Shown here piece after piece: positions 8,169 through 62,141 of a stretch of 64,000 nucleotides of DNA. Source of the DNA: an uncultured bacterium (GTDB taxonomy: Bacteria > Fermentibacterota > Fermentibacteria > Fermentibacterales > JCC-6). The stretch lies in the NCBI GenBank assembly GCA_964607515.1, contig CAZSKU010000003.1, positions 72,175 through 136,174 of the forward strand, read 5' to 3'. How positions within the stretch are numbered: the first letter of the stretch is position 1; the number at the start of each line of letters is the position of its first letter. Below the pieces are notes generated by a model that was not told the origin of the DNA, made no database searches, and was given only the letters and a program-made list of their open reading frames with translations. The position numbers were made by a program, and so were the translations under genes.

Positions 8169-8179
8169 TTCGTCACCAT

Positions 8180-8337: not shown

Positions 8338-8423
8338 GCCGGAGTGGCGGAACGGCATACGCGGTGGACTCAAAATCCATTGTCCGCAAGGGCATGAGGG
8401 TTCAAATCCCTCCTCCGGTACCA
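8338..8423 (+). tRNA. tRNA-Leu (anticodon CAA), type II with long variable arm
   Basis: GCCGGAG...GUGGA-CUCAAAA-UCCAU-long variable arm-AGGGUUCAAAUCCCU-CUCCGGU-A-CCA; divergent from the minus-strand tRNA pair. Confidence 0.85.
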
Positions 8424-11936: not shown

Positions 11937-13460
11937 TCACGGGCCCCCGCCGTCAAGCCCCGCCCGCCCCATGCTCAGGGCGGTGGCGGCGGCCAGCCTG
12001 ACCTGTCCGGAGGACATGCGCAGAAAAGGTTTTAAAAAGACACCGGGCCGGACACCCTGGCTCCTGGACAGCCAGATCAGGAACCGGCCGATGCCCCGGG
12101 GATCCAGGGCCGGGTCGCTCCGCTCGAGCCTGGCGGCCACCCGGGCTGCGCAGGAGGCGTCACCGGAGATTCCGCGGGCTTCCAGTACCTGCACAAGTTG
12201 CAGAAACAGCTCTCCCCGGGCCTCCCCGAGCCACCTCCTCAGGACCGCGGCGGTTCCGGGGGAAAGCTGTTCGGGAAAGGCGTCCAGCAGTCGGAGGCCG
12301 TTCCTGCTCAGGTCCGAGGCGGCGAGAGCTTCCAGGGCCTTGAGGTTTTCCTGTGACATTCCTTCCAGACGAATGTTCTCCGGAACGCAGCCCCTTCTCA
12401 GTACCTCCGCCGCCGCTGGATCGCCCCCCCCGGCGCAGAGGGCCCGGTAGGCTTCCCTTGACGGCTCGTAACGGGGATCGCCGCAGAGCCGGGCCAGGAA
12501 GGGGCTCGAATCGGGATCCCCCAGCAGCGCCATCCCCTCCAGGGCCGCCGCCCTCTCCGCCAGGGTGTTCACTGGAACGGCCCGGTTGACCATGGCCGCC
12601 CTCTTCAGCAGGGGAAGACCGGGGAACCATCCCGCCCCTCCTATGCCCCTGAGAACGGCTCTTCGCACCCAGGTGCTGCAGTCCTCGGCCAGGGGAGCTA
12701 TCAGGGGGCCGGCGCCCCTTCCGGAGGCCAGCACCAACCCCTCCACGGCCCGGGCCCTGACGTGGGGGCTCCCGTCCCTGACCGCCAGCAGCAGAGCGGA
12801 TACCGCTTCACTGCCGCCGATCCTGCCCAGTGCCAGGGCGGCGCTCTTCCGGACATTCCAACCGAACCTGCCCAGCAGTATGTCTGCGATACCCTTCACC
12901 GCGCCATTCTCCCGGAGTATTCCAGCGGCTTCCAGCAAAGCCTTCTTGTCCATGTCGGGCAACTCCGGGAAGGAGGGATCGGTGATGAGGGGCGCCAACT
13001 CCCCTGCCACCGGTGTTCCCCTGAGCCGGGACTTCTCCCGTCCCGCCCTCAGGCACAGTTCCTCCACGGTTTCGCGGCGGCCCACGGCCCGGATGAGAAC
13101 CACGGTCAGGTCCAGGAAGGGAAAGAACCGGTATCCGCCGTAACGGTCGAAGGCCTCGATGCCCCCGGCCTCCCGGTCACGATCCTTGTAGAATCCCGGT
13201 GCCAGGGCCCTGAACCGGAGCCTGGCCCCCTCAACCCGGGTTCGGAAAACCCCGTTATCCCCGGCGCAGACGAAATCGTCGCCGCCCACGTGCCCGATGA
13301 AGTCGGGCCTGACCTCTTCCGACAGTATTTCCCCCAGCCTCCTGATGACCAGATCCCCCAGGGAAACCCCGTAATGGTCGTTGAAGGCCTTGAAGCCCGT
13401 GATGTCCAGAAATGCCGCGGTGCCTCCCCTGCGCACCACCCGCCTCTGCAGCTCCCTCAT
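11937..13460 (-). CDS. GGDEF-family (degenerate GGDDF) domain fused to HEAT / PBS-lyase repeats
   Basis: DITGFKAFNDHYG...IGHVGGDDFVCAGD is a diguanylate-cyclase fold with E replaced by D; C-terminal repeats (SEAVSALLLAVRDGSPHVRARAVEGL...) are HEAT/PBS-like; the ATG start at 13460 cuts the conserved LTGLPGN motif, which lies in-frame upstream (see finding). Confidence 0.65.
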   Translation of the reverse strand: MRELQRRVVRRGGTAAFLDITGFKAFNDHYGVSLGDLVIRRLGEILSEEVRPDFIGHVGGDDFVCAGDNGVFRTRVEGARLRFRALAPGFYKDRDREAGGIEAFDRYGGYRFFPFLDLTVVLIRAVGRRETVEELCLRAGREKSRLRGTPVAGELAPLITDPSFPELPDMDKKALLEAAGILRENGAVKGIADILLGRFGWNVRKSAALALGRIGGSEAVSALLLAVRDGSPHVRARAVEGLVLASGRGAGPLIAPLAEDCSTWVRRAVLRGIGGAGWFPGLPLLKRAAMVNRAVPVNTLAERAAALEGMALLGDPDSSPFLARLCGDPRYEPSREAYRALCAGGGDPAAAEVLRRGCVPENIRLEGMSQENLKALEALAASDLSRNGLRLLDAFPEQLSPGTAAVLRRWLGEARGELFLQLVQVLEARGISGDASCAARVAARLERSDPALDPRGIGRFLIWLSRSQGVRPGVFLKPFLRMSSGQVRLAAATALSMGRAGLDGGGP

Positions 13461-29159: not shown

Positions 29160-29555
29160 CTAATCCTGCCCTGAACCGCCGTCAACCTTCATGGGGTCGC
29201 GGCCGAGGATGCCTATGATCTCTCTGATCTCCGCCGCCACGGAGTCCAGAAGGGCGTCACCGGGGGCTGCCTGGGAGGGCTGCCCGGGCTCCAGTTCCAG
29301 GGCCATCTGGCCGTGTTCCCTGCGGATATCCTCCAGCTTCTTCCGGGCGCCCTCAATGGTGTATCCCTCCTCGTACAGCAGTTTCTTGATGTACTGAAGG
29401 GTCCTGACGTCGCCGGGCCGGTAGACCCGATTGCCCGCCTTGTTCTTGTGGGGATTGAGCATGGGAAAGGCTGTCTCCCAGTACCGGAGGACGTGGGGCT
29501 TCAAGTCCAGCATCCGGCAGACTTCGCTTATCGGATAATAGAGCCTCTCGGTCAT
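29160..29555 (-). CDS. MerR-family transcriptional regulator (CbpM/HspR-like)
   Basis: N-terminal MerR HTH ([21 protein letters not shown]); 4-nt overlap with the upstream J-domain gene. Confidence 0.7.
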
Positions 29556-30361
29556 TTTCCGCGGCCTCCGAAGAGTTTCTTCCAGATCGGGGCTTTCCGG
29601 CCTTCCAGCCGGCCGAGTTCCTCCAGTGCCTTCATGGCCCCCTCATGGTCTTCCTGCCATGACAGGGCGTTCTCGAGACTCTTTCTGGCCATGGCGAACT
29701 GCTCGGCCTTCATGTAGACCCTTCCCAGCATGACGTGGTTTTCGGGGTTGAAGTACTCCGCCTCGCACGCGCTCTTGAGAAATTCCGCCGCCTCCCGGAG
29801 CCTTCCCCTGCCCTCGGCGGCCATGGCCTGAAGCCTTCTCACCTCGGGATCCCTGGGGAATGTCATGGCGGCCCGATTCAGCAGGTCTCCGGACCTCCAG
29901 AAGTCGCCTTCCCGGATCATCCTGCCGGCGGCGGACTTCAGCCTCGCCAGGGTCGCCGGAGGCATGGCACCTCCGGTGGCCTGACCCTCCTTGGGTCTCG
30001 GCCTGGCCGGCTTCACCGGCGTTGGAGCGGCCGCTTCCTCCTCCGGGGGCTTGTCCTCCGACGGCTCTGGCGCAGGCGCCCTGCGGGGCTCCGGAACCCG
30101 GGTGATAACGGGTTCCGGCTCCCAGGGAATCGTGTCGGCTATCTCCTCGTCGTACTTCCGTCTCTCCTGGGAATCGCTGAGCACCAGATAGGCCTCGTTG
30201 ATCCGGGCGAACTTGGCCACGGTTTCCGGGGAGTCGCCGGCAACGTCGGGATGGAGCTTTCTGGCCAGCTGGAAGTAGGCGTGGTCTATGGCCTCCCTGG
30301 AGGCCTTCCTGCCGATTCCCAGCACGTGGTAGTGGCTGCCGTAGGACTCCTCCCCGGGCAT
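29552..30361 (-). CDS. J-domain (DnaJ-like) protein with Pro-rich linker and TPR-like C-terminus
   Basis: J-domain HYHVLGIGRKASREAIDHAYFQLARKLHPD (HPD motif) at the N-terminus. Confidence 0.75.
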   Translation of the reverse strand: MPGEESYGSHYHVLGIGRKASREAIDHAYFQLARKLHPDVAGDSPETVAKFARINEAYLVLSDSQERRKYDEEIADTIPWEPEPVITRVPEPRRAPAPEPSEDKPPEEEAAAPTPVKPARPRPKEGQATGGAMPPATLARLKSAAGRMIREGDFWRSGDLLNRAAMTFPRDPEVRRLQAMAAEGRGRLREAAEFLKSACEAEYFNPENHVMLGRVYMKAEQFAMARKSLENALSWQEDHEGAMKALEELGRLEGRKAPIWKKLFGGRGK

Positions 30362-32165: not shown

Positions 32166-32188
32166 ACGTCCGAAATCCCGGGGGGCGC

Positions 32189-32226
32189 TCCGGCGCCCCC
32201 CGTTTTCTTTTCCGGACTGACTCCGC
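32189..32226 (+). terminator. rho-independent terminator after rpsT (GGGGGGCGC-UCCG-GCGCCCCCC + UUUUCUUUUCC)
   Basis: Strong GC stem plus U-tract; lies between convergent rpsT and cysS. Confidence 0.8.
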
Positions 32227-33648: not shown

Positions 33649-34640
33649 AGCCGGCCCTCTCGAAAGTAGTCTATCTTCATGGCCTCCCTCACCTCGCCCA
33701 TTGTGGCCTCCCCCTCCCGCCGGGCGGCATCGGTGCCGGCCATGAGTATTTCCTCCACCACCCCGGGCCGGTCGTAGGCGGCCCTCCTTTCCCGGATCGG
33801 TTCGAGGAGCCGGTTGAGTACCGAGGCCAGGTTTTTCTTGCAGGCCACGCAACCTATGGAACCGGCCATGCACGAGGCTTCTATGTCGGGAACCTCGGCC
33901 GGATTGAATGCCTTTTGCCATGAGAACACTGTGCAGACCTCGGGATGGCCCGGATCGTTCCGGCGGACTCTCGCGGGGTCGGTCACGGCGGTCATCACCT
34001 TGGCGGAGACCTCCTCCGGGCTGTCCTTCAGGTAGACGGCGTTGCCCAGGGACTTGCTCATCTTTGCCCCCCCGTCCAGCCCAGCCAGCCTGGATACGTC
34101 GCTCACCAGTGCCCGCGGCTCGGGGAATACCTTGCCGTACAACTCGTTGAACCGTCTGGCCACGAACCGGGTCACCTCGACGTGGGGAAGCTGATCCTCC
34201 CCCACGGGCACCAGGTCGGCCCGGCAGAACAGGATGTCCGCCGCCTGACTCACAGGGTAGCCCAGAAAACCGTAGGTCATATCGGTGTACCCGTACTGCC
34301 TTGCTTCGGTCTTGATGGTGGGGTTGTGCCGCAGGCGGCTCACCGTGACGAAAAGCCCGAAAAGAACCGTCAGTTCGGCAATCTGGGGAACCATGCTCTG
34401 CAGGAACAGTTTCGACCGCCGGGGGTCGAGGCCAGCGGCGATATTGTCCAGGGCCACCTCCCGGGCGTGGACCTTGAGCATTCCGGGGGTCTCCCAGTGT
34501 GTGGTCAGGGCCTGGACGTCGGCGATGATGATGAAGGTGTCCAGGGTGTCCTGCAGTTTCACCCGGTTCCTCAGTGAACCCACGTAGTGGCCGAGGTGAA
34601 GGGGACCGGTGGGGCGGTCCCCGGTGAGTATCCTATCCAT
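33645..34640 (-). CDS. trpS: tryptophan--tRNA ligase
   Basis: HLGHY (HIGH) and KMSKS motifs; 331 aa. Confidence 0.9.
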   Translation of the reverse strand: MDRILTGDRPTGPLHLGHYVGSLRNRVKLQDTLDTFIIIADVQALTTHWETPGMLKVHAREVALDNIAAGLDPRRSKLFLQSMVPQIAELTVLFGLFVTVSRLRHNPTIKTEARQYGYTDMTYGFLGYPVSQAADILFCRADLVPVGEDQLPHVEVTRFVARRFNELYGKVFPEPRALVSDVSRLAGLDGGAKMSKSLGNAVYLKDSPEEVSAKVMTAVTDPARVRRNDPGHPEVCTVFSWQKAFNPAEVPDIEASCMAGSIGCVACKKNLASVLNRLLEPIRERRAAYDRPGVVEEILMAGTDAARREGEATMGEVREAMKIDYFREGRL

Positions 34641-35655
34641 GCGGAGTTCTCCCCTGTTGTTCGAGAATCACAGGGTCGTCCTGTTCCCGGAAGCCCCTGA
34701 GATCGATTTCCCCCGTGTAATGTTCCACCAGGCCGATGATCCTCTCCACCGCCGGCCTGACCGAGGGACAGTGCTCGGGGTACTGCTCGAGGTAACGGAG
34801 GGTTCTTGGAATGTATGCCAGGTAGCGTTTCCTCCCGAGGGCCCGGTACTGCCAGGCGAAGGTGCCCATGGCCTTCACGTTCCTCTGAACCGCGGAGAAG
34901 ATGAAGTGGAATATGTTCGATCCCCCGGGGCCGGTGAGATACTGGAGCGCGATGTTCTTCCACTGCTCCCCGATGTCCCGGTAGCTGTCCCGGAGAAGGC
35001 TTGCGGCGTCGTAGGTGGCGGGACCCAGCCGGGCGTCCTGCCAGTCCACCAGGCGCAGCCGGTTGTCCTTCACCATCAGGTTCGCGCTGTGGTAGTCCCG
35101 GTGGCACAACACCGTGTCCCCCTCCATCGCCCTCTCGCAGAGCGCCCGGAGGTGCTGCTGAAGGTCCAGCAGCTGATCCAGTGGAACCCTCAGAAGCCTG
35201 AAGAAAAGGTGCTCGAGGGTGTGCTCCATCTCCGCCATGAAGAAGCTGGCCGTGAAGTATCGCCGGCCCGCCACCGATACCTTGGCCGCCTCCTTCGGTA
35301 TGCTCTTGTGAAGCTGTTTCAGAAGGTCGAGGGCCTGCCGGGTGAGCACCAGAAAGGCCTCCGGGCTTTCGATGTCCAGAAGTCTGAGGGGACCGAGGTC
35401 TTCCTGTACCGCAAACCCTCTGTATGGGCTGGCGCTGTAGAGTTCAGGGACCGGGAATCCATTGGTGCGCAGAAGGTTGTGCACGTCCATCCACGGCCAC
35501 AGGGGCACCCGCCGGCTGTCCATGGCCACCAGGGTGCCGCTCCGGGTCTTGAACCTGTAGAACAGGCGGCTCGAGGCGTCGCCGGACAGCGCGGTGATCT
35601 CCCTGGCGTCGGGGTAACGCTCACTGATCCAGGCCCGGAATTCGTCACTGATCAC
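34633..35655 (-). CDS. aminoglycoside-phosphotransferase-fold kinase, AmgK-like (anomeric MurNAc/GlcNAc kinase candidate)
   Basis: APH-fold catalytic HRDYHSANLM and DWQDA; paired with a downstream-overlapping nucleotidyltransferase as in the amgK-murU recycling pair. Confidence 0.55.
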   Translation of the reverse strand: MISDEFRAWISERYPDAREITALSGDASSRLFYRFKTRSGTLVAMDSRRVPLWPWMDVHNLLRTNGFPVPELYSASPYRGFAVQEDLGPLRLLDIESPEAFLVLTRQALDLLKQLHKSIPKEAAKVSVAGRRYFTASFFMAEMEHTLEHLFFRLLRVPLDQLLDLQQHLRALCERAMEGDTVLCHRDYHSANLMVKDNRLRLVDWQDARLGPATYDAASLLRDSYRDIGEQWKNIALQYLTGPGGSNIFHFIFSAVQRNVKAMGTFAWQYRALGRKRYLAYIPRTLRYLEQYPEHCPSVRPAVERIIGLVEHYTGEIDLRGFREQDDPVILEQQGRTPHG

Positions 35656-36487
35656 GTCTGACCGGCCCTCCTCGGGAAAACCAGGGAAGTATCGAGTTCA
35701 GCAGCCGGGTTCCCCCGGAAAGCACCGAACCGGGAAGCATCACCGAGCCCTCCACCAAAGCTCCGGCCTCCACCCTGCAACCCCCGTACACGTGACAGAC
35801 GCCGGAAAGCACCGCGTCCGGCGAGACCTCGGCACTCCCGTGGACGAAGGATCCCTCCGAAAGAAGGTTCATCCGGTAGAGTTCGGGGGTGCCCATGTCC
35901 ATCCATCCGGCCACCCCCTCGAAGCCCGCCGGCTCACCGACAATAAAACCGGAGAGGAAGTTCCGAAAGCCCTGACACCCGACGCAGCGCCGGGCTACCT
36001 GGGGCTCGATCACGCACACCCCGAAGTAGTGCCTGGCCCGCCGGCCCACCTCGACGGTGCCGTAGTCTCCACGGTCCGGTGGGTCGCCGCACAGAAGGGT
36101 GCAAAGAGCGCCGCTTTGCAGGTGGTTCCGGAGCAACCCCCGCAGATCGGCCTTGAGCGCCATGTCGGTGTTCATGATCATCCATGGACCGCTGATTTCC
36201 CGGGAAAGCCGGGCCAGAGTTCCCGCCAGCCCCAGGGGTCTCTCCTCGAAAAGAAGCCGGACTTCCCTTCCCGCGGAATCGCATGCTTCCCGGTGCACGA
36301 GTTCCGGGCACCGGCTGGCATTCACCGCCATGACTTCCGGGTTCAGAACGGTTGCTTCCCCGGCGAGCAGCCCCAGAAGGGTCTTCTCCCGGAAGGGTAG
36401 CAGGGCTTTTGGTCGGAAAAGGGAAAGGGGTTCCGCCCTTCTGCCGAAACCGGCGGTGAGGAGCAGAACCCCCTGCAGGCCGCTCAC
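35645..36487 (-). CDS. sugar-1-phosphate nucleotidyltransferase, MurU-like
   Basis: N-terminal NTP-transferase motif LLTAGFGRR...PKALLP; left-handed beta-helix-like C-terminus. Confidence 0.55.
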   Translation of the reverse strand: MSGLQGVLLLTAGFGRRAEPLSLFRPKALLPFREKTLLGLLAGEATVLNPEVMAVNASRCPELVHREACDSAGREVRLLFEERPLGLAGTLARLSREISGPWMIMNTDMALKADLRGLLRNHLQSGALCTLLCGDPPDRGDYGTVEVGRRARHYFGVCVIEPQVARRCVGCQGFRNFLSGFIVGEPAGFEGVAGWMDMGTPELYRMNLLSEGSFVHGSAEVSPDAVLSGVCHVYGGCRVEAGALVEGSVMLPGSVLSGGTRLLNSILPWFSRGGPVRRDQ

Positions 36488-36500: not shown

Positions 36501-36704
36501 TTATCCGTAGACTTCTTTGCGGTTGCAGTCGCAGACCTTGACCCTGCGCCTCTGGGGGCGCCATGCGCCGGATTCTCCGCAGGAGCACGCCAGGTGTACT
36601 ATGGACTGTTTTTCCTTGCCGCACACCTTGCATATCTCCACGTGGACGGTGCGGGTTTCGTGGGCAAGCTTGGCGGCGAAGGTCCTGTCTTTCTTCTTGG
36701 GCAT
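36501..36704 (-). CDS. small basic zinc-ribbon protein (67 aa)
   Basis: MPKKKDRTFAAKLAHETRTVHVEICKVCGKEK...HLACSCGE...VKVCDCNRK with eight Cys; start taken at the internal ATG since upstream ORF residues are junk. Confidence 0.4.
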   Translation of the reverse strand: MPKKKDRTFAAKLAHETRTVHVEICKVCGKEKQSIVHLACSCGESGAWRPQRRRVKVCDCNRKEVYG

Positions 36705-38599: not shown

Positions 38600-41500
38600 C
38601 TACCTGTGTTTCACGATGACCAGGGTTCTGTCGTCCGCCTGGGGAGCCGAACCGCCGTGGTTCTGCACCTCCTCCAGAACCCTTCTCACGATCTGGGACG
38701 AGCCCAGGTCCATGTGCCGCCGAACCGCCGCCACCAGGCCGTCCATGGAGAACTCCTCGCCCCGTTCGTCCATGGTCTCGGTGATACCGTCCGTGTAGAG
38801 AGCCAGCACGTCGCCGGCCCGGATTTCGAGCACTCCGTAGTCGTAGGAGACATCGGGTCCGAATCCAAGAATGAGTCCGCCGGTGTCCAGAACCTCTGTA
38901 TCGCCGTTCCTCCTCACCAGCACCGGCGGGTTGTGGCCGGCGTTAACGTAGGTGAGCCGTCCCGACTCGTGGTTCAGAACGCCGTAGAAAAGACCGATCA
39001 GACCGGTCGCCTGGGTGCCCGTGAGCATGGCGTTGTTCACCCGGTGCATCACCTCGCTGATGCTGAAGATGCTCTGGACGTTGGCCGAGAGGCTTCCCTT
39101 GAGGCCGGCCATGGTGAGGGCGGCGGGAATCCCCTTGCCGGTCACGTCAGCCACCGCCAGCCCCAGGTTGTTCCCGGACAGGTGGAAGAAGTCGTAGTAG
39201 TCGCCGCCCACCTCCCGGGCCGGCCTGTAGTACGCCGCGATGTCGTAGCCCTCCACCGCCGGCGGCGCCGAGGGCATCAACTCGTACTGAATCATTCTGG
39301 CGGTACTCAACTCCCCGGCGATTCCCCCGCCGCTGTCCAGCCTGCCCAGGAAGAGGTCCGGCATCTTCGCCCTCAGGGCGCTGCTGTTGGTGATGTCGGG
39401 GTGCCTGGTGACAATGCTCACCGCGGCCAGTCTCACCTCTTCCGCGGAATCCGTGAGAAGGTCCGCCAGGTGTTCCTCCAGAGCGGGGCTGTCCACACAG
39501 CCCAGCCTTTCCACCGCCCGAAGAGCCTCCAGTCTCACCGGGGCCGACGGGTCCCCCAGGGCCACGGCGATCAGGGGCATCCGGTCCTGGGGGGAGAGGC
39601 TGACCGACCGGAAGAATCCGGCGAAGGTCCTCAGCCTCACAAAGGAGTCCTGGTCGTGGATCAGCTTTTCAGCTATGGAGTAGCGCCGGGTCTCCTCCCG
39701 GCCCCAGAATTCCCCCCCCGCCTCTCCCGCCGCGGCCCTCACGGACCTTTCGGGGTCCCCGGCGAGGCTCTCCAGGAGGGTCCCGGTCTCCTCGGTGCAC
39801 ACTCCGAGTTGTCTGGCGGCGGCGGCCACCGCCGCCCTGACGGTGCCGGACTGGTCCTCGGCCAGCCGTCCGAGGGCCTGCGCCGCTTTGGAGCCCAGGG
39901 ACTCACGATTCCAGAGGAGGAACCAGGGAAGCTTTACCCTGGCCTCCACCCCCTTCTTCCCGATGATCCTGTCCACCGCTTCCAGGGAGACCTCGGCGAT
40001 GTCCCTGCGGCCTGAGGCGAGAAGCCTGCTCAGGGCCTCACGGCCGCCGTAGGACTCGTCGGAAAGCACCCTCACCACGACCGTCAGCTGGCCGTAGGAT
40101 TCGATGATTCTAAGGTAGGGCAGCGCCATCTCGGCGATGGACCTGTCCCTGGGCATCCGTTCGGTGACGATGCGCCAGAGGGTATGCCTTTCCCGGCGGT
40201 TCAGCCACTGGTAATTCATCAGAAGGTACTGGGCCACCCCCTTCAGATCGGCGTCGGGAATGTCGGCGATCATGGCGTCCCGAACCTCCGTTGAAAGGTA
40301 TCTTATCCGGGAACCGAGCTGAAATGCCACCAGCGCCCGGCCCCCCTCCCTGAGCCTCTGGATGAGTACCCAGAGAAGGTCTCCCACTTCCCCGGTAACC
40401 CCCTCCAGCTTCCTGTTGGTAAGGCCCCAGGCGAGGAATCTGAGGTCTTCCGGGTTGCCCCCCTCCAGAGCCTCGTTCAGGACGTCCCTCTCCCTTTCCG
40501 ACATCTCCGGGAAATTCCCTCCGATGTGCACCAGCACCTGCCTCCGCACCACCGGGGTCGGGTCCTCCAGGAGCATCCCGTAGTAGCCGCCGGGGTCGTC
40601 CCCCACGGACCACGTCTCCATGCCGTACATGAAGGCTTGCCTCACCCCCGGAGACGACCCGTCTAGGAGCCTCCGGAGGATGTCCTCCATTCTGGTTTCC
40701 TTCCTCACCCAGTACATGGCCAGGCTCCGGGCTAGCTCCACCCGCAGCGGCTCGCGGCCGGATTCCACGATGAAGCGGCAAAGCCCGAGGGCCTGGGTGT
40801 CGAAGCTCTTCCGGTTGAGGATCAGCTTGTTGAAGAAGTCGCCGAGGTTGACCGCCTCGGTCTCCCTTGAGGCAGCGAAAAGCAGGGCGGCCTTCTTCTC
40901 CCTGGAGAGGCTGCTGTAATGCTGGACCGCCGCGAAGCCGGCCCTTCGCATGGGGGACTCCTGGCTGCCCAGCAGGGTATCCAGCACCGCTGTCACCACC
41001 GCGGAACCCTGCATTATCAATTCCTGGGCGCCCATGTCCACCGCCGCCATCACTGTGGTGTCGCCGGCGCACAGGTGCATTTCGCCCCGGAGTATCAGCC
41101 TCCTGAAGGGGGGATTGCCCAGGGATGCGTCCGAGGTCTCGTACCTTTTCTCGAGGCTTCCCACTCCGGCGAAATCGCCGGCCAACAGAAGGTTCAACCT
41201 TTCCCACGCTTCCAATACCGCCCGGCGGAAGAGGGATTCGGGAACGATGGGCTCGAAGAGGGACAGCATGATCAGAGCCGCCTGACCGAAAGGGTCCGTG
41301 TCCCAGAACCTTGCCAGCGCCCGCTCCCCCTCCCGGAGCCTCCAGGACCTGTTCTCCGCGGGCTGGGGAAGGATGAGGTGTTTCCCCTCGAAGAGGCTGA
41401 ACACCGCCTCCATCTTCGAGGAAGAGGAGCAGACCACCAGCCTTCGGCGCTTGTCCGTGGCCCGGGCCATGGTGGTTATGAAAACGTGCCACAGGTGGGC

Positions 41501-42211
41501 CGGGTAGTCGCCGGCGTACCTGCGCATGCTGTCTAGATCGAAGAGTATGGCGCAGTCCTCGGGCCCCCTCAGGATGAGGTCCACCTCCTGGGCGTTCACG
41601 TCGCCCTCCACAAGCTCGATGGGAAGCATCCCCGCCCGGGCCGACCTGGCGATGAGTATCCTGGCCAGGGTGGTCTTTCCGGAACCCAGCGGGCCCGAGA
41701 GGCATATGAAGCCGTTTTCCTGAAGGATCTGCTCCGCCGTCCGGATGATCGCCGGATCTATGGTATCCTCCCGGAGAAGGCCCCATCCGTTCAGGAGATC
41801 CTCTCCCGCGGGATACGGAAGGGTGTCCCGCCGCACCGACGCCAGCCAGGCCGCCACCGGTCCGGCCATCAGGTGCCTGGCCTCCTCAAGGGTGCCGAAA
41901 CGCCAGAAGAGCCCCTCCGCCTCGAGCCTGACCGCCACCCGGTCCGACGGGTCAATTTCACCCGCCGCCAGGGCGGCCACGGGGATCCTGCTGCGAAATG
42001 AGCTGAAGTAGGCGTGCCGAAGGGCGGCGGAGGGCGTTCCGTTGCACACCAGCAGCACCGCGTCGGGGTGCGAGTCGTCCGGGGTCACTGCCATGGAGTC
42101 GGCCCACCGGGGATGAGGCAGTCTGGCGGCTTCGGAGATCACCACGCCGTCCGCGCCGAAAGGGAAGGGTGCTTTCTCGGCCAGCACCCGAAGCCTGAAG
42201 ACGCTGTTCAT
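38600..42211 (-). CDS. 1203-aa multidomain protein: N-terminal P-loop NTPase, central HEAT/ARM repeat array, C-terminal PP2C (SpoIIE/RsbU-type) Ser phosphatase
   Basis: Walker A LSGPLGSGKTTLARIL; repeated DPxxxVRxxAxxxLG HEAT-like units; PP2C region GYDIAAYYRPAREVGGDYYDF...VADVTGKGIPAAL...YTDGITE...ADDRTLVIVKH. Confidence 0.8.
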   Translation of the reverse strand: MNSVFRLRVLAEKAPFPFGADGVVISEAARLPHPRWADSMAVTPDDSHPDAVLLVCNGTPSAALRHAYFSSFRSRIPVAALAAGEIDPSDRVAVRLEAEGLFWRFGTLEEARHLMAGPVAAWLASVRRDTLPYPAGEDLLNGWGLLREDTIDPAIIRTAEQILQENGFICLSGPLGSGKTTLARILIARSARAGMLPIELVEGDVNAQEVDLILRGPEDCAILFDLDSMRRYAGDYPAHLWHVFITTMARATDKRRRLVVCSSSSKMEAVFSLFEGKHLILPQPAENRSWRLREGERALARFWDTDPFGQAALIMLSLFEPIVPESLFRRAVLEAWERLNLLLAGDFAGVGSLEKRYETSDASLGNPPFRRLILRGEMHLCAGDTTVMAAVDMGAQELIMQGSAVVTAVLDTLLGSQESPMRRAGFAAVQHYSSLSREKKAALLFAASRETEAVNLGDFFNKLILNRKSFDTQALGLCRFIVESGREPLRVELARSLAMYWVRKETRMEDILRRLLDGSSPGVRQAFMYGMETWSVGDDPGGYYGMLLEDPTPVVRRQVLVHIGGNFPEMSERERDVLNEALEGGNPEDLRFLAWGLTNRKLEGVTGEVGDLLWVLIQRLREGGRALVAFQLGSRIRYLSTEVRDAMIADIPDADLKGVAQYLLMNYQWLNRRERHTLWRIVTERMPRDRSIAEMALPYLRIIESYGQLTVVVRVLSDESYGGREALSRLLASGRRDIAEVSLEAVDRIIGKKGVEARVKLPWFLLWNRESLGSKAAQALGRLAEDQSGTVRAAVAAAARQLGVCTEETGTLLESLAGDPERSVRAAAGEAGGEFWGREETRRYSIAEKLIHDQDSFVRLRTFAGFFRSVSLSPQDRMPLIAVALGDPSAPVRLEALRAVERLGCVDSPALEEHLADLLTDSAEEVRLAAVSIVTRHPDITNSSALRAKMPDLFLGRLDSGGGIAGELSTARMIQYELMPSAPPAVEGYDIAAYYRPAREVGGDYYDFFHLSGNNLGLAVADVTGKGIPAALTMAGLKGSLSANVQSIFSISEVMHRVNNAMLTGTQATGLIGLFYGVLNHESGRLTYVNAGHNPPVLVRRNGDTEVLDTGGLILGFGPDVSYDYGVLEIRAGDVLALYTDGITETMDERGEEFSMDGLVAAVRRHMDLGSSQIVRRVLEEVQNHGGSAPQADDRTLVIVKHR

Positions 42212-42218
42212 TCGAAGG

Positions 42219-42635
42219 TCAGGTCAGAGGCCAGATAAGGGTTGCCCTGGTCTTCCCTTCGGGAGTGAGATCGAACTCGACCCATTTGGCAAGATTCCTG
42301 GCAATCAGTATGCCCCTTCCCCGGTCGTCCAGGAGTTCCTCCCCCTCGCCGGGACGATGGCCCAGCTCCCTTCCGGGGTGCCAGCTGCCCCTGTCCTCCA
42401 CCTGGAAGGACACCCTGCCGGGCAGCACGTCGGCCCTGACGGTGAGCGGCCTGGAGGGATCCATCGAGTTGCCGTGCTTCATTCCGTTGCGGACCAGTTC
42501 CATCACGGCGATGGACATACTGGTCAGTTCGTCGGGGACCACGCCCGCGGCCATGCCCACGCTTTCCACGAAGACCTGCACGGTTTCCAGCATCCGCTCG
42601 TCGCTTGGAACCGTGAGGCAGATCCCTTTGAGCAC
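42219..42635 (-). CDS. RsbW-like anti-sigma factor / Ser-protein kinase (GHKL ATPase)
   Basis: N-box AVMELVRNGMKHG, G1 VEDRGSW, G2 GRGILIARNLA; GTG start at 42633-42635 placed one nt after the STAS gene stop. Confidence 0.7.
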   Translation of the reverse strand: MLKGICLTVPSDERMLETVQVFVESVGMAAGVVPDELTSMSIAVMELVRNGMKHGNSMDPSRPLTVRADVLPGRVSFQVEDRGSWHPGRELGHRPGEGEELLDDRGRGILIARNLAKWVEFDLTPEGKTRATLIWPLT

Positions 42636-42636
42636 C

Positions 42637-42978
42637 TCATCCCTCCAGGGCCGCAAGGGCCTCTGTCTCGTCGGTAAAGGTCTCGAAGATGGTGATGAGC
42701 TTGGTGATGATGAACAGCTCATGGATCTTCTTGGTGGCGTTGAGAATGACCATCCTTCCTCCGGCCCTGGAAACCGTCGTGTGGCCGCTGACCAGAACCC
42801 CGAGACCGGAGCTGTCCATCCAGGAAACCCCCCCGAGGTCCACGACTATCTTCTTGTAGTCGTTATTGACGGCGCTCTCGAAGGAGGCCTTGACTTCCAT
42901 CAGATCCGGCCCGCTGATGACCTTTCCACCGAGTCGGATGACCCTCACCGCACCCTTGCTCTCCTCGTTGATCTTCAT
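42637..42978 (-). CDS. STAS-domain anti-sigma-factor antagonist (RsbV/SpoIIAA-like)
   Basis: 113-aa STAS fold with the conserved phosphorylatable Ser region DLGGVSWMDSSGLGVLV; GGGAGG is 5 nt upstream of ATG 42976-42978. Confidence 0.8.
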   Translation of the reverse strand: MKINEESKGAVRVIRLGGKVISGPDLMEVKASFESAVNNDYKKIVVDLGGVSWMDSSGLGVLVSGHTTVSRAGGRMVILNATKKIHELFIITKLITIFETFTDETEALAALEG

Positions 42979-43071
42979 GATCCCCTCCCGGGTTGAATTG
43001 TGACCGCACACCGGCAAACCATAGCCTTTAGCATAGGCAAACCGGGGACTCCGGGCAAGAAGGGGAAGGGG

Positions 43072-44076: not shown

Positions 44077-44858
44077 CGGGATTCCAGAGCCGACCTGAGA
44101 TCCTCGGTGGTGAAGGCCGGGGCGAAGCACAACAGCCCGACGCACGCCTGGGCGTATGGTCTGCCGGGGTCGGGCAGGTGGTTCTCCTCCATCAACGCCG
44201 CTCCACTGGGGTCTTCCGGATCCACCAGGTCCACCCCCTCCCCGCCGGCCAGAGCGAGGGCCTCCCGGTAAAGCGCCACGGTGAGCGGATCACCCGGGGG
44301 ACCCACCACGTATATGTGGAGTTCCTCCCGTGTGCCGTCGGAGGGGATTTCCAGCGCCGGAGCCCCTTCCAGAAGCCCCCGGAACCCCTCGCCGGCAGAT
44401 GCCCCAACGATCCTTCCCGTCTCTTCGCCTCCGGCCAGAAGAATGGTCACGGGCAGCACTGGGGGAAGCCGGAACCTTTCCCGGACCCTTTCCGCCTCCT
44501 CCGGGGAAAGCCATACCACCGGCATGGCCACGGGGGAACCTTCGAGAAAGGATTCCAGGGTCCCGAGGAACGGATCGCCCAGGGAGACCGCCGCGAAATC
44601 GGCCCTTCCCCGGTATTCGGCGTGAAGGCTGTCCAGCGTCGGCAGCTCATGGACGCAGGGGCTGCACCAGGTGGCCCAGAAGTTCAGAAGTACCGGCCGT
44701 TCCCCGGCCGCCTCCAGCAGGCTGTCCAGGGAACCCGCTCCCTTCAGCAGCGGCCCTCCTTGGCCGGACGGCCCCACCCCGGAGCCGGCTCCGTGCCTGA
44801 GAACCGGAACGATGAGGAGCAGGGTGGCGGGAATCCACCAGGGAAAACTACGGGCCAT
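44073..44858 (-). CDS. TlpA-like thioredoxin-fold thiol:disulfide oxidoreductase
   Basis: Signal peptide; WATWCSPC active site. Confidence 0.75.
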   Translation of the reverse strand: MARSFPWWIPATLLLIVPVLRHGAGSGVGPSGQGGPLLKGAGSLDSLLEAAGERPVLLNFWATWCSPCVHELPTLDSLHAEYRGRADFAAVSLGDPFLGTLESFLEGSPVAMPVVWLSPEEAERVRERFRLPPVLPVTILLAGGEETGRIVGASAGEGFRGLLEGAPALEIPSDGTREELHIYVVGPPGDPLTVALYREALALAGGEGVDLVDPEDPSGAALMEENHLPDPGRPYAQACVGLLCFAPAFTTEDLRSALESR

Positions 44859-45705
44859 GGCTGATAGCCTTCACCGGGCACACCTCGAGGCATTTCATGC
44901 AGCGGATGCACTCCGGGGAACTCTGCCGGCGCCATATCTCTATGCCCATGGGGCAAACCGACCCGCACATGCCGCACCTGGTGCAGCGGTCCGACACTCT
45001 CATCCTGAGCACCGCGGCCCGGCCCAGGAGCCCCCAGGCGGCGCCCAGCGGGCACAGATACCTGCAGAAGGGCCTCTCCACGGATACCCCCAGGATCAAT
45101 ACCGCAACGGCCAGGGCGGATTTCCACGCGAACAGGAAACCCGTGCGGAAGACCCCGCCGGTATCCCCGGACACCAGGGGCCATCCCGCCAGGGAGGTTC
45201 CAGCGGGACAGACAGCCTTGCAGAACCAAGGGTCTCCGGTGGTCTCCGGGGACGCCCTGAAAAGCAGGGGGAGGAGAACCAGAAAAAGCGCCAGCATGAC
45301 GTACTTCAGGGGTCGGAACCCCTCGGGAATCCGTATGCCTGGAAAGGGTATCCGGTAAAGAAGGTCCTGTATGAACCCGAAGGGGCATATCCATCCGCAG
45401 GCGAGCCTTCCTCCGGCAAGCCCCACGGCGGCGATGAACCCCAGGGGCGCCAGAAGCGCCAGGGCGTCGGGCCTGCCGGAGGTCAGGGCGGCCATCACTC
45501 CGGGCGATGCCAGAACTGCCTGAAGGGATCCGGCTGGACACGACAGAACCGCCGAGGGGGTGCTGTAGCACCAGATCCCCGGCACGAAGAACATCTTGGA
45601 GACTCCCTGATAGATGACGCCGGTGATCCAGCCGGAGAAGTGCAGGTTGGCCCCCAGGAAAGAGGCTGCCTGGACAGCGGTTCTGGTGGGGCTCAGCCCG
45701 GTCAT
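44848..45705 (-). CDS. 4Fe-4S-binding membrane protein (NapH/MauN-like)
   Basis: Polytopic membrane segments plus C-terminal CxxCxxCxxxCP clusters (CTRCGMCGSVCP, CIRCMKCLEVCP); start at MTGLSPT because the longer ORF runs over tRNA-Cys. Confidence 0.65.
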   Translation of the reverse strand: MTGLSPTRTAVQAASFLGANLHFSGWITGVIYQGVSKMFFVPGIWCYSTPSAVLSCPAGSLQAVLASPGVMAALTSGRPDALALLAPLGFIAAVGLAGGRLACGWICPFGFIQDLLYRIPFPGIRIPEGFRPLKYVMLALFLVLLPLLFRASPETTGDPWFCKAVCPAGTSLAGWPLVSGDTGGVFRTGFLFAWKSALAVAVLILGVSVERPFCRYLCPLGAAWGLLGRAAVLRMRVSDRCTRCGMCGSVCPMGIEIWRRQSSPECIRCMKCLEVCPVKAISHGP

Positions 45706-45829
45706 CCCACTCCGATGCACTCGAGGCAGACGTTCACCGCCTTGCTGAGAATCACCAGCGGGTCGCCAAAGAGGTAGCCGGCGGCGGTCAGGGCCAGGGC
45801 CGCTGTCAGAAGCAGCACCCTGGGAAGGA

Positions 45830-45904
45830 TGGAGGCGGCGACCAGATTTGAACTGGTGAATGGTGGATTTGCAGTCCACTGCCTTCCCACTTGGCTACGC
45901 CGCC
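45830..45904 (-). tRNA. tRNA-Cys (anticodon GCA)
   Basis: GGCGGCGUAGCCAAGUGGGAAGGC-A-GUGGA-CUGCAAA-UCCAC...GUUCAAAUCUGG-UCGCCGCC-U-CCA with the U73 discriminator typical of tRNA-Cys. Confidence 0.85.
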
Positions 45905-57336: not shown

Positions 57337-59273
57337 TCAGAGAGAGGCCAGAATGTCCAGAAAGCTCTCGGAGTCCAGGCTGGCGCCGCCCACCAGGGCG
57401 CCGTCCACGTCGGGCATGGAGAGCAGGTCCGGGGCGTTCTCCGGGGTGACGCTGCCGCCGTAGACTATCCTGGTTTCCCGGGCGAAGCCGGCGCCGAAGA
57501 TGTCGCCGAGCAGTCTGCGGATCAGTCCGTGAACTTCCCGGGCCTGGTCCGGGGTGGCGTTCCTGCCGGTGCCTATGGCCCATACAGGCTCGTAGGCCAC
57601 CGCCAGGTTGTCCGGGTCCGCGTCCCTCAGATTTCCGAGGGCCGACTCGATCTGGCCCCGCACCACCTCTTCGGTCCTCCCGGCTTCCCTTTCCTCCAGA
57701 GTCTCCCCGACGCAGAGAAGCCCCTTCAGCCCGGCGGATATCCCGGCCTGCAGCTTTCCGGCCACGGTTTCCGAAGACTCTCCGAGGATGCGGCGTCGCT
57801 CGCTGTGGCCCGCCAGGAACCACCGGCAGCCGGCTTCCAGGAGCATTTCGGCGCTCACCTCGCCGGTGAAGGCGCCCTTCTTCTCCCGGAAGACGTCCTG
57901 CCCCCCCAGAAGCACGCCGGCTTCCTCAGCTGCCTCGGTCAGACCGGCAAGGAGGGTGAAGGGCGGGAATAGAACCGTTTCGGCGCCGAAGCCGACCGAG
58001 TTCCCGGTCCGCATGGCTTCTAGAAAGTCCAGGGCCCCTTCCCGGGTTCCGTTCATCTTCCAGTTGGCGCCCATCAGGGGCCTGACCCCTTCCACGGCAA
58101 TGTGCTTCAGAGCCGGCAGGTCGTTGCCCTGCAGGAGTTCCAGGCTGGCCCCGCCCCCGGTGGAGGCGTGGGTGACCCGGTCCAGAACCCCCGCCTCGGT
58201 GACCGCCCGAAGGCTGTCTCCGCCGCCCACTATGGTGACGGCTCCCCGGGAGGTTGCCTCGGCCAGCATCATCGCTGCCTCCCGGGTGGCGGCGTCGAAG
58301 GGGGGAACCTCAAAGAGGCCCATGGGTCCGTTCCAGACCACGGTGCCGCTTCTGCCGATGACTTCCCGGAAGAGGGCCACCGACCCGGGCCCGATGTCGT
58401 AACCCGCCGTGCCGTCAGGGATTGCGTCCCATGGAACGGTGACTGGTTTCTCCTCCGGGGAAGGGGCGCAGACGTAGTCCACCGGAAGCACCAGGTTCAC
58501 CCCGGCCTTTTCGGCGGCTCTCATGATCTCCCGGGCGGTCTCAACCCGGTCCTCCTCCACCAGGCTGCGGCCCGTGGAGACACCTTTCGCCCGGACGAAG
58601 GTGAAGGCCATGGCACCCCCCACCAGGAGGTTGTCGAGCCTTGGAAGGACGTGCTGGATCATGGCAACCTTGTCGCTTACCTTGGCCCCCCCCATGAGCA
58701 CCGTGAAGGGCTTCCTCGGGTGAGTCACCATCCTTCCGAAGGCTTCCAGCTCCTTCTCCACCAGAAGGCCTGCGTACCCTCCGCCCATGACCGACGGGAC
58801 TCCGGCCGTGGAGGCGTGCTCCCGGTGGCACGTTCCGAAGGCGTCGTTCACATAGATCTGGGCCAGTTCCGCCAGTTCCCTGGAGAAAACCGGGTCGTTG
58901 GCCTCCTCCCCGGGATGGAATCGGAGGTTCTCGATGAGAAGCACCTGTCCCGGGGCCAGCCCCCGGGCCATGGCCTTCACCCTGGGTCCGGAAACCCGGT
59001 CTATGAAGAGCACCTCGTAGTCTTCCAGGAGTTCCGACAGCCTTTCGGCCACCGGGGCCAGGCTGTACTTGGGCTCCGGCGCTCCCTTGGGTCTTCCGAG
59101 GTGGCTGCACAGGACCACCGGGCTCCCCTGGTCGAGAACGTACCTGAGGGTCGGCAGCGAGGCTATAAGCCTGCCGTCGTCCATAACCCGGCCCTTCTCC
59201 ACCGGGACGTTGAGGTCCGCCCGGAGGAACACGGTTCTCCCGCCGGTTCTGGTCTCCCGGATGGACGGATACC

Positions 59274-59277
<4 letters not shown>
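57337..59277 (-). CDS. pgk: fused phosphoglycerate kinase - triosephosphate isomerase
   Basis: PGK N-half (FLRADLNVP...GGGASLELL) continues without a stop into a complete TIM (GANWKMNG...AYEPVWAIGTG...YGGSV); GTG start 59275-59277 overlaps gap stop (GTGA). Confidence 0.85.
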
Positions 59278-60290
<1,013 letters not shown>

Positions 60291-60303: not shown

Positions 60304-61347
60304 TCAGTCCCTGTCGGAGAAAAGGTCCGCGAGCATGCACAGATCCTGCGGCACCGTCTTCAAAGTTCCCACCGCCTCCGCCAGGTCGGCGGTCTCCATG
60401 GAAGTGCCCCTGAGCACCACGATCTTTCCGGTTTCACCGGCTTCGGCCGTTTCCACGGCCTTAACCCCGAGCCTCGTTCCGAGAACCCGGTCGAAGGCGG
60501 TCGGAGCGCCACCCCTCTGAAGGTGGCCCAAGACCACGTGTCTTGTCTCGATGCCGGTCCTGTCCTCGATCTCGTTCTTGAGCACCTCGCCTATGCCGAT
60601 TCCGGTGCCCAGCTGCACGTGCCCGAAAGAGTCGGTCTCGGACGAGTGGTAGACATGCCTGGCCAGCTGGGGATCCATGGCCCCCTCGGCCACGGCCACC
60701 ACCGCGTACCTTCGCCCAGCCTCGAACCTCTTTCTGAGGATTTCGCAGACCTTGTCGGTATCGAACTCCCTCTCCGGGGTCAGGATCACGTGGGCGCCCC
60801 CGGCGAGGCCGCCGTACAGGGCCATCCAGCCGGCGTGCCGGCCCATTATCTCAACCACCATTATCCGTTCATGGCTCCGGGTCGTGGTCCGGAGTTCGTC
60901 AAGGGCGTCCATGACCCGGTTAATCGCCGTGTCGAACCCGAAGGTGCAGTCCGTGGCGGACAGGTCGTTGTCTATGGTCTTGGGAACCCCCACCACCATC
61001 ATTCCCATCCGGGAAAGCTTCAGGGCCACCCCGAGGGTGTCCTCGCCGCCCACCGCCACCAGGCAGTCCACCTGGGCGGCCTTCAGGTTGTCGAGGATCC
61101 GCTGGTAGCCGTCCTCCACCTTGCCGGGGTTGGTCCGGGAACTGAAGAGGACGGTGCCCCCCTGGGTGTGAATCCCCCTCACCGAGTCCCTGGTGAGGTC
61201 CACGGTGTCGTTTTCCAGGACGCCCTTCCAGCCCCTGAGGAAACCGGTGACCCGGTGTCCCCCCGCCAGGGCCCTCACCACCGCCGCCCTGATGACCGCG
61301 TTGAGCCCCGGGGCGTCGCCTCCCCCGGTGAGAATGCCTATGTGCAA
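60304..61347 (-). CDS. 6-phosphofructokinase with PPi-type signature residues
   Basis: GILTGGGDAPGLNAVIRA; GGEDT in place of GGDGS and PKTIDND in place of PGTIDND; TTG start at 61345-61347 with AGGAGG 7 nt upstream gives an N-terminus MHIGILTGGGD. Confidence 0.75.
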   Translation of the reverse strand: MHIGILTGGGDAPGLNAVIRAAVVRALAGGHRVTGFLRGWKGVLENDTVDLTRDSVRGIHTQGGTVLFSSRTNPGKVEDGYQRILDNLKAAQVDCLVAVGGEDTLGVALKLSRMGMMVVGVPKTIDNDLSATDCTFGFDTAINRVMDALDELRTTTRSHERIMVVEIMGRHAGWMALYGGLAGGAHVILTPEREFDTDKVCEILRKRFEAGRRYAVVAVAEGAMDPQLARHVYHSSETDSFGHVQLGTGIGIGEVLKNEIEDRTGIETRHVVLGHLQRGGAPTAFDRVLGTRLGVKAVETAEAGETGKIVVLRGTSMETADLAEAVGTLKTVPQDLCMLADLFSDRD

Positions 61348-61358
61348 GACGAAACCTC

Positions 61359-62141
61359 CTATCGGTACCTGTCCGGGGGCCATCCGTAACTCCGGACGGC
61401 GCCGGAAAGGACGTGAAACTCCTCCAGATTCAACGACTGGCCCCCGTCCGAGAGGGCCCGGTCGGGGTCGGGGTGAACCTCTATCATCACCCCGTCCGCT
61501 CCGGCCCCCAGGGAGGCCATGGTCAGGGGGGTTATGATGTCCCTGCGCCCGGCGGCGTGGCAGGGGTCCACTATCACGGGAAGAGAGGAGGACTGCCTGG
61601 CCAGGGGCACCGCGCTGATGTCCAGGGTGGACCTGGTCCAGGTCTCGAAGGTCCTTATGCCCCGCTCGCACAAGACCACCGCCTCGTTGCCCTCCTTGAG
61701 CACGTACTCCGCGGCCAGAAGCCACTCCTCGACGGTGGCCATGAAGCCCCTCTTCAGCAGCACCGGCTTGCCGCACCGGCCTATCTCCGTGAGGAGTATG
61801 AAATTATGCATGTTCCGAGCGCCCACCTGAATCATGTCCAGATGGTCGGCCGCCTGCTCCAGCTGGCTCACGGAAAGAACCTCTGAAACCACCGGAAGCC
61901 CGGCCTGCCGGCCGGCATCCCGGAGCATCTCCAGCCCCTCGGCGCCAAGCCCCTGAAAGGAGTACGGGGATGTCCTGGGTTTCCAGGTGCCTCCCCGGAG
62001 CATCGAGGCTCCGGAGTCCCTCACCGAAAGGGCCACCTCGAGGATCATGTCCCAGTTCTCCACCGCGCACGGGCCGGCCACCAGAACCGGGCTTTCCCCG
62101 CCGAACTCGGCTTCCCCGACCTTCACTCTTCGTACAGCCAA
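61359..62141 (-). CDS. 3-deoxy-7-phosphoheptulonate (DAHP) synthase, type I-beta (KDO8P-synthase fold)
   Basis: LVAGPCAVE...RGGTWKPRTSPYSFQGLG...DPCHAAG. Confidence 0.8.
   Translation of the reverse strand: MAVRRVKVGEAEFGGESPVLVAGPCAVENWDMILEVALSVRDSGASMLRGGTWKPRTSPYSFQGLGAEGLEMLRDAGRQAGLPVVSEVLSVSQLEQAADHLDMIQVGARNMHNFILLTEIGRCGKPVLLKRGFMATVEEWLLAAEYVLKEGNEAVVLCERGIRTFETWTRSTLDISAVPLARQSSSLPVIVDPCHAAGRRDIITPLTMASLGAGADGVMIEVHPDPDRALSDGGQSLNLEEFHVLSGAVRSYGWPPDRYR

Follow-up and report, generated by a model that had tools for sequence, protein, structure and literature searches.

The closest described systems are the RsbU–RsbV–RsbW and SpoIIE–SpoIIAA–SpoIIAB modules of Bacillus, in which tightly linked genes encode a STAS protein with a phosphorylatable serine in a DSSG motif, a GHKL kinase with N, G1, and G2 boxes, and a PP2C phosphatase of the SpoIIE/RsbU type. 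The input of SpoIIE is a transmembrane region. Activation of such input phosphatases is an active question: in the current model, regulated dimerization via a coiled-coil linker activates the PP2C domain, and in RsbU and its relatives it acts through the linker and α0–α2 (PMC12143880). The input domains listed for RsbU-type phosphatases are the RsbU_N four-helix bundle, PAS, REC, GAF, and HAMP; a STAND NTPase is not on the list (PMC12143880). Here, we describe a module of this kind from an uncultured bacterium of the phylum Fermentibacterota (assembly GCA_964607515.1, contig CAZSKU010000003.1, positions 72,175–136,174). The whole 64-kb stretch is referred to below as the window, and all coordinates are counted from its first nucleotide. 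Three co-directional genes, lying back to back on the minus strand at 38600–42978, encode a STAS antagonist, a GHKL serine kinase, and a 1203-aa phosphatase with a STAND NTPase and a HEAT solenoid as its input, which sets it apart from the Bacillus modules. We are highly confident of the identity of these parts. On balance, we lean towards a phylum-wide partner switch with an NLR-like (NOD-like receptor-like) STAND protein as the input phosphatase, in which nucleotide- or ligand-driven switching of the STAND module gates the PP2C domain.

An earlier note, made from the letters of the stretch alone, had proposed a partner-switching triad of three tightly packed genes. Pfam assigned the genes to the STAS, HATPase_c_2, and SpoIIE families, and the features of a partner switch that can be read at the sequence level were all kept: the phosphorylatable serine in DSSG, the N, G1, and G2 boxes of the kinase, and the metal-binding Asp motifs of PP2C. 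When GTDB species were scanned with one genome each, 31 loci were found; all of those bearing an informative name belonged to Fermentibacterota (formerly Hyd24-12), including Candidatus Fermentibacter daniensis and Candidatus Sabulitectum silens.

The STAS gene (42978–42637, minus strand, 113 aa, ATG at 42978) matched Pfam STAS with 50.6 bits (open reading frame (ORF) 42637–43017) and NCBIfam TIGR00377 ant_ant_sig with 60.2 bits at a cutoff of 53.45. Its WMDSSGLG motif, which aligns with the FMDSSGLG motif around Ser58 of SpoIIAA, was identical in 31 of the 31 loci containing the gene, and Ser56 within it (codon 42811–42813) is the predicted phospho-acceptor. The kinase gene (42635–42219, minus strand, 138 aa, GTG at 42635) matched HATPase_c_2 with 65 bits (ORF 42219–42722). 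The conserved boxes of its product were N (ExxxNxxxH), G1 (DxGSW), and G2 (RGRG(I/V)LIAR), the last being found in 32 loci. NCBIfam agreed with these assignments above the cutoff for STAS and only at sub-cutoff scores for the kinase and the PP2C domain. Scores with the NCBIfam equivalogs were far below the cutoffs (20.8 vs. 145 for RsbW, 19.9 vs. 135 for SpoIIAB, and 55 vs. 114.75 for SpoIIAA); thus, judging by sequence, the STAS protein and the kinase are generic members of their families and not orthologs of RsbV/RsbW or SpoIIAA/SpoIIAB. Both look functional.

The third gene (42211–38600, minus strand, 1203 aa, ATG at 42211) encodes the phosphatase. AlphaFold2 (AF2) models were calculated from family alignments for residues 1–480 (mean predicted confidence score, pLDDT, of 86.1) and residues 1–1200 (pLDDT of 85.5). 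From the N- to the C-terminus, the protein consists of a domain resembling TIR and nucleoside 2-deoxyribosyltransferase (TIR/NDT-like), a nucleotide-binding domain (NBD) of the nSTAND3 clade with the helical (HD) and winged-helix (WHD) domains, a solenoid of about 550 aa, a Gly-rich tether, helix α0, and the PP2C domain. The Pfam domains nSTAND3, HEAT_2/HEAT, and SpoIIE were each detected above the gathering threshold.

The PP2C (PPM) domain of the RsbU/SpoIIE type occupies residues 991–1203 (38603–39241, minus strand; fold 992–1199), as determined by Pfam and Foldseek. Pfam SpoIIE matched residues 1013–1202 with 156 bits and an E-value of 1e-45, and the metal-ligand motifs GGDYYD, DVxGKG, TDG, and DD were present in 29–30 of 30 translated species-level orthologs. 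The top Foldseek matches in the PDB were the RsbU domain of Rv1364c, RssB, SiaA, SpoIIE, and RsbX (E-values of 1e-9 to 1e-7). RssB, SiaA of Pseudomonas aeruginosa, and Rv1364c of Mycobacterium tuberculosis were the best structural matches to residues ~965–1200 (E-values of 1e-9 to 1e-8, 19–28% identity), and the NCBIfam RssB and SiaA models weakly matched the PP2C region. Unlike the window protein, these phosphatases are regulated by REC, PAS, or a kinase/STAS fusion, and none of them has a P-loop NTPase.

The PP2C domain is preceded by the tether and helix α0 (residues 951–978, 39242–39361, minus strand), both delimited with AF2. The tether (residues 951–963, PDLFLGRLDSGGG) contains GRLDSGGG and had pLDDT values below 50 at about 952–962 (952–956 and 958–962). 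It leads to α0 (residues 964–978, IAGELSTARMIQYEL), in which E967, L968, A971, I974, and Q975 were invariant, including in a homolog from candidate division CSSED10-310. The conserved ELxxAxxIQxxLLP helix is shared with the Bacillus phosphatases; their continuous coiled-coil linker is replaced in the window protein by the flexible Gly-rich tether.

The α-solenoid of about 15 helical hairpins (residues 404–950, 39362–41002, minus strand) was all-helical in the AF2 model and is presumed to be a sensor or a scaffold. The earlier note had read the roughly 1000 residues upstream of PP2C as an NTPase followed by HEAT/ARM-like repeats. The helical repeats held up, but HEAT scores were confined to the last third, at residues ~774–931 (HEAT_2, 53.7 bits, gathering threshold of 27.7; HEAT, 41.7 bits, gathering threshold of 23.5); the N-terminal α/β domain and the helical and winged-helix domains of the STAND module had been missed. 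The C-terminal third of the solenoid is composed of PBS-type HEAT repeats with a D..xVR motif, and residues 404–770 are HEAT-like by structure only. SF3B1, karyopherin β2, CAND1, and the STRIPAK complex (7k36) were found among the PDB structures matched by Foldseek. Across genera the solenoid was 39–40% identical and nearly indel-free, compared with 47% identity for the NBD and 59% for PP2C.

Regarding the NTPase, the class of which the earlier note had left to be determined, profile searches and the AF2 model of residues 1–480 assigned it to STAND, nSTAND3 clade. The NBD was placed by Pfam and alignment at residues 150–285 (41357–41764, minus strand), and is followed by the helical and winged-helix domains at residues 286–401 (41009–41356, minus strand), the wing being a β-hairpin at 369–382. 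Translation confirmed Walker A, GPLGSGKT, at 41672–41695 and Walker B, AILFDLD, at 41531–41551, both on the minus strand. Pfam nSTAND3 matched residues 156–260 with 32.4 bits against a gathering threshold of 27.2 (E-value of 9e-8, model positions 7–107 of 155). A profile of residues 1–480, compared without a word prefilter with 1.84 billion representative proteins, gave only 43 matches; all 10 remote matches that were scanned with Pfam carried nSTAND3, several of them at 85–155 bits. Architectures of these remote relatives included Mrr_cat-nSTAND3 (~760 aa) and nSTAND3-ankyrin. Generic AAA+ domains aligned over only ~150–180 residues, and the same profile gave matches to PDB sequences at the P-loop level only. 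The tripartite NBD-HD-WHD arrangement followed by repeats is that of STAND proteins. Walker A (GxxxxGKT) and Walker B (hhhhD[LI]D, with the Mg-binding Asp) were found in 30 of 30 species-level orthologs, and the Lys and Thr of Walker A and the Mg-binding Asp were invariant even in the 23%-identical CSSED10-310 lineage. Nucleotide binding is thus very likely. The clade nSTAND3 is that of the NTPase of Avs5 (bioRxiv 10.1101/2025.07.08.663546).

The α/β (flavodoxin-like) domain at residues 1–125 (41837–42211, minus strand) resembles the TIR/NDT fold in its predicted structure. In the Fermentibacterota sequences, it had no significant Pfam match and no PDB sequence match; the best match to DUF4062 was obtained with one CSSED10-310 homolog at an E-value of 0.14. 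The putative catalytic Glu at position 84 was present in ~19 of the 30 orthologs and was replaced by S, T, N, or Q in the others. We assign the domain to the TIR/NDT fold, probably non-catalytic, with low confidence. A domain of this kind gives the 1203-aa protein an NLR-like layout, and the DUF4062-NACHT proteins TEP1 and NWD1 are known examples of a TIR-like domain placed immediately before a STAND NTPase. Compared with the TIR-like (DUF4062)-NACHT proteins TEP1, NWD1, and NPHP3, the window protein lacks a significant DUF4062 match and a conserved catalytic Glu, and its NTPase belongs to a different clade.

Sequence search retrieved 16 clusters of full-length homologs with lengths of 1202–1205 aa, and those with names belonged to Candidatus Fermentibacteraceae and Candidatus Sabulitectum; the databases label them only as "SpoIIE family protein phosphatase". 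Their alignment contained 7 gapped columns out of 1206. Among the 30 translated species-level orthologs, 29 were complete (1203–1206 aa). The remaining one (L033, Candidatus Fermentibacter daniensis, contig LKHB01000212.1, 867–4109) was 1119 aa long and lacked the last PP2C motifs, and the next gene at this locus starts ~320 nt later than at other loci; the truncation probably reflects a frameshift or misassembly of this metagenome-assembled genome and is not real. A second lineage with the same architecture was represented by three proteins of 1304–1308 aa (P0056, P0075, and P0076) and by a contig-end fragment (P0045) named candidate division CSSED10-310. P0056 could be aligned colinearly with the window protein over 1168 residues, at 23% identity. 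In these searches, the combination of STAND, HEAT, and PP2C was found only in two uncultured candidate phyla, Fermentibacterota and CSSED10-310.

In the model that we favor, the kinase would phosphorylate Ser56 of the STAS protein, and the STAND module would serve as a nucleotide-dependent switch. Binding of an endogenous ligand or protein to the solenoid or to the N-terminal domain would bring the protein into an ATP-bound open state and cause self-association, as in other STAND proteins. Self-association would bring the PP2C domains, on their loose tethers, to a higher local concentration, and they would dimerize and become active as described for RsbU, RsbP, and SpoIIE; this induced-proximity step is offered tentatively, as one that may well not hold. 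The active PP2C would dephosphorylate STAS-P, and the unphosphorylated STAS would capture the kinase and free the partner of the latter. The freed partner might be a sigma factor encoded elsewhere or a non-sigma protein; alternatively, the output might be the STAS protein itself.

Several points weigh against this model, some concerning the protein and others the linkage of its gene. We infer every step beyond the domain identities. The AF2 models represent a single chain, and the oligomerization and PP2C-dimerization steps need several. The catalytic output is located C-terminally, after the sensor repeats, which is an unusual position for a STAND effector. Finally, the Walker A/B NTPase reported in the earlier note proved to be a real P-loop with an atypical catalytic site: in comparison with seven bona fide nSTAND3 domains, the canonical second acid of Walker B was replaced (DD changed to D[LI], with an Asp at +2), as was the sensor-1 Arg (TTR changed to SSS, SSD, or similar). 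The grounds on which that note would have rejected its own reading were for the most part not borne out; degeneracy of the NTPase applies to these two positions and not to Walker A or the Mg-binding Asp. Because of the replacements, efficient hydrolysis is uncertain, and ATP hydrolysis, perhaps together with cycling, may be impaired.

The same replacements, which were seen in all orthologs, suit a protein with no cycling or oligomerization, in which the nucleotide would be a structural cofactor and a partner or metabolite bound to the solenoid would expose or occlude PP2C within a monomer or a fixed oligomer. A long and evenly conserved solenoid is what would be expected of a fixed protein–protein interface, and the flexible tether would permit intramolecular docking of PP2C. 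We nevertheless regard such a scaffold as unlikely: the Lys and Thr of Walker A and the Mg-binding Asp have stayed unchanged across deeply diverged sequences, CSSED10-310 included; the full NBD-HD-WHD switch architecture is kept; and relatives of the same clade oligomerize, the Avs5 filaments being represented by PDB entries.

Linkage of the three genes was analyzed by tblastn comparison of the window proteins with the loci. In every locus with enough flank, the order was Fer4, thioredoxin-like, GT2, STAS, kinase, phosphatase, SAM_HAT, GH57, NTP-transferase, APH, and TrpRS, with GT2 absent from three loci. The order STAS-kinase-phosphatase was found in the 31 species-level loci and in L001, L003, L008, and L009, wherever the upstream flank sufficed, and the triad was never broken within such Fermentibacterota loci; an Aegiribacteria locus had the same gene order. 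Since synteny in the phylum extends over the entire ~12-kb block, this linkage is weak independent evidence for functional coupling and detracts from the model. So do the CSSED10-310 homologs (loci L004–L007), which had no adjacent STAS or kinase gene. The linkage that the earlier note had expected in related genomes is thus constant within Fermentibacterota and missing from CSSED10-310. The CSSED10-310 genes were always preceded by divergently transcribed genes for an RDD protein and a B12-binding radical-SAM protein. A gene for a ~277-aa protein with a degenerate REC-like N-terminus and HATPase_c_2 was located 3.5–4.5 kb upstream in L005–L007, and L005 also encoded a REC-HATPase_c_2 protein; these proteins may be the kinase partners in this lineage. 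No partner gene conserved across both phyla was found in the homolog contexts examined, the RDD and radical-SAM genes being unrelated. It follows that the fusion of STAND, HEAT, and PP2C predates, or is independent of, the operon association with the STAS-kinase pair.

Synteny of the entire block from Fer4 to trpS makes adjacency unspecific and leaves room for a PP2C that acts mainly on other phosphoproteins and neighbors the STAS gene only through phylum-wide gene order; the CSSED10-310 loci, with no adjacent STAS or kinase and a (pseudo)REC-HATPase_c_2 gene 3.5–4.5 kb away, fit this as well. We consider it very unlikely. The domain belongs to the SpoIIE/RsbU subfamily, the characterized members of which act on STAS proteins (PMC11418112). 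The genes are also packed as for coupled translation, with gaps of 1 and 7 nt in the window and overlaps of 4 nt between the module genes in L009. Moreover, the STAS protein is conserved like TrpRS, which indicates strong constraint alongside the phosphatase: identity to the window proteins was 64–90% for STAS, against 67–85% for TrpRS, and STAS stood well above the kinase (54–89%) and the phosphatase (39–80%). The high conservation of STAS fits several constrained interaction surfaces, and STAS itself may be the output.

The conserved nucleotide-binding motifs, together with the position of the module amid core metabolic and translation genes, with GH57, NTP-transferase, trpS, and cysS close by and glycolysis genes in other parts of the window, would also be consistent with an energy or nucleotide sensor in which the NBD reads cellular ATP/ADP or GTP and the solenoid is a spacer or a dimerization scaffold. 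Energy-stress partner switches exist, for example, RsbP/RsbQ. Such a sensor is quite unlikely here: a spacer would hardly account for about 550 strongly conserved solenoid residues together with a conserved N-terminal domain, and STAND proteins normally need a ligand to lift autoinhibition.

Membership in the Avs5 clade, the closest remote relatives of the defense-gene-like Mrr_cat-nSTAND3 type, and the TIR-like fold at the N-terminus raise the question of an Avs-like anti-phage protein with a PP2C effector. This is barely credible and is largely refuted by the distribution: in every Fermentibacterota genome retrieved, all 31 species-level ones included, the gene lies at the same syntenic locus in a housekeeping operon-like block, the sensor is conserved and nearly indel-free, and the presumed catalytic Glu of the TIR-like domain varies among orthologs. 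PADLOC gave no Avs match for the window protein, only a generic HEAT-ARM match and weak P-loop matches. In contrast to Avs5 (AVAST type 5, SIR2-nSTAND3-TPR), the window protein has an additional C-terminal PP2C domain; instead of SIR2, its N-terminus carries a domain lacking a conserved catalytic residue; its NBD differs at the second Walker B acid and the sensor-1 Arg, which are replaced; and its gene is passed on vertically, keeps a single locus in a housekeeping context in all genomes retrieved, and encodes a conserved sensor. The constant length, the conserved solenoid, the fixed locus near trpS and cysS, and the lack of a specific PADLOC match indicate that the protein behaves as a housekeeping protein and not as an immune sensor.

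Regarding the output, a Pfam scan of ~47 ORFs across the 64-kb window gave no match to sigma factor families, in agreement with the earlier note, and no further STAS, HATPase_c_2, or SpoIIE gene. Nor was a sigma-70 family match, which would have marked the classical type of target bound by the kinase, found among the called genes of L001–L003, L008, and L009. Unlike in the Bacillus modules, no sigma gene was found in the operon or among the scanned ORFs of the window. The earlier note had concluded that the kinase target is probably not a sigma factor; this does not follow from the missing gene, and partner switches with distantly encoded sigma targets are known. Sets of STAS, kinase, and PP2C genes with no sigma gene in the operon are also known: HsbR/HsbA, SypE/SypA, BtrU/V/W, and the Synechocystis IcfG cluster. 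Their inputs are REC or other classical sensors, and to our knowledge none of them has been reported with a STAND NTPase.

A more specific variant combines the housekeeping character of the protein with a non-sigma output. Here, a domesticated NLR-like receptor with a phosphatase effector would oligomerize in response to ligand and ATP and dephosphorylate STAS, which would regulate, for instance, the co-transcribed envelope or carbohydrate enzymes. Two signaling paradigms so far separate, STAND/NLR switches and partner switching, would thereby be joined. We consider this variant possible but doubtful.

Gene starts were refined from the sequence and from the lengths of orthologs in related genomes. 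The ATG of the STAS gene at 42978 is preceded by the ribosome-binding site GGGAGGGG. The GTG of the kinase gene at 42635 is located 1 base past the STAS stop codon and 7–8 nt past GGAGGG, and the ATG of the phosphatase gene at 42211 is located 7 nt past the kinase stop codon. A longer kinase ORF from ATG 42722, overlapping the STAS gene by 86 nt, was rejected as probably not the true gene because the lengths of homologs and orthologs fit 138 aa: gene calls in related genomes were 137–139 aa (113 aa for STAS), and the 112 clusters of kinase homologs were 116–144 aa long except for one 83-aa fragment. A scan of 32–47 kb for promoter and terminator consensus sequences gave counts no higher than in shuffled sequence, with no promoter support in the 93-nt gap between the GT2 and STAS genes. 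No riboswitch or leader RNA was found close to the module by the Rfam and tRNA scan.

The next gene downstream encodes, as the earlier note had stated, a SAM hydroxide adenosyltransferase (SAM_HAT, Pfam; 38595–37840, minus strand), separated from the phosphatase stop codon by a 4-nt gap. Between the GH57 and NTP-transferase genes, there is a 66-aa Cys-rich ORF (36501–36701, minus strand; MPKKKDRTF...CKVCGKE...CSCG...CDCN) with no Pfam match, which looks like a zinc ribbon; a gene was called at the matching position in L001, L003, L008, and L009. The NTP_transferase gene overlaps the APH-family kinase gene (34633–36487, minus strand), and this pair, kept phylum-wide, resembles what we take to be the MurU/AmgK pair of sugar-1-phosphate recycling. 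A perfect 10-bp GC-only palindromic hairpin, CGGGGGGCGC-TCCG-GCGCCCCCCG, is located at 32179–32202, just downstream of the cysS stop codon (32230), and is a candidate terminator for this long run of co-directional genes. On the upstream side, the co-directional block with the partner-switch genes is bounded by tRNA-Cys(GCA) at 45830–45904 (minus strand). This tRNA gene overlaps the long Fer4 ORF (44848–45879) at its 5′ end, so the ferredoxin-like gene must start downstream of the tRNA.

A second signaling protein with HEAT repeats is encoded in the window by a 507-aa ORF (11937–13460, minus strand) with a partial GGDEF domain (residues 14–64) and HEAT_2; a 380-aa PAS-domain ORF (10764–11906, minus strand) follows immediately downstream on the transcribed strand. 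Signaling proteins of this organism may use HEAT repeats recurrently, as a sensor or a scaffold. A 736-aa ORF (57337–59547, minus strand) encodes a fusion of phosphoglycerate kinase and triosephosphate isomerase (PGK, 465 bits; TIM, 278 bits), after which a PFK gene is located at 60304–61776. Ordinary features of the window are class A RNase P RNA (139 bits) and a tRNA-Val/Met/Leu cluster at 6956–7250 (minus strand) and 8093–8423, and a MerR-family regulator gene overlapping a DnaJ-TPR gene at 29160–30361 (minus strand).

The signaling STAND regulators MalT and PH0952, with which AfsR is grouped, have DNA-binding or unknown outputs, with no phosphatase or partner switch, and belong to other STAND clades. 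A literature search with incomplete coverage found no description of a STAND, NACHT, or NB-ARC module fused to PP2C/SpoIIE or feeding a partner switch, and no paper on an NTPase-HEAT-PP2C architecture, which the earlier note had also taken to be undescribed. The locus thus presents a familiar circuit fitted with an input module of a new class.

Practical impact is limited, as the hosts in Fermentibacterota and CSSED10-310 are uncultured. If the model is true, partner switches would gain a new class of input, a nucleotide-gated oligomerization switch as in NLR immune receptors. The protein would offer a natural test of whether induced proximity alone activates an RsbU-type PP2C. To the STAND field it would add a member of the Avs5 clade that is inherited vertically, has no immune role, and carries a novel kind of enzymatic output, and it would bear on the interconversion of immune and housekeeping STAND proteins.

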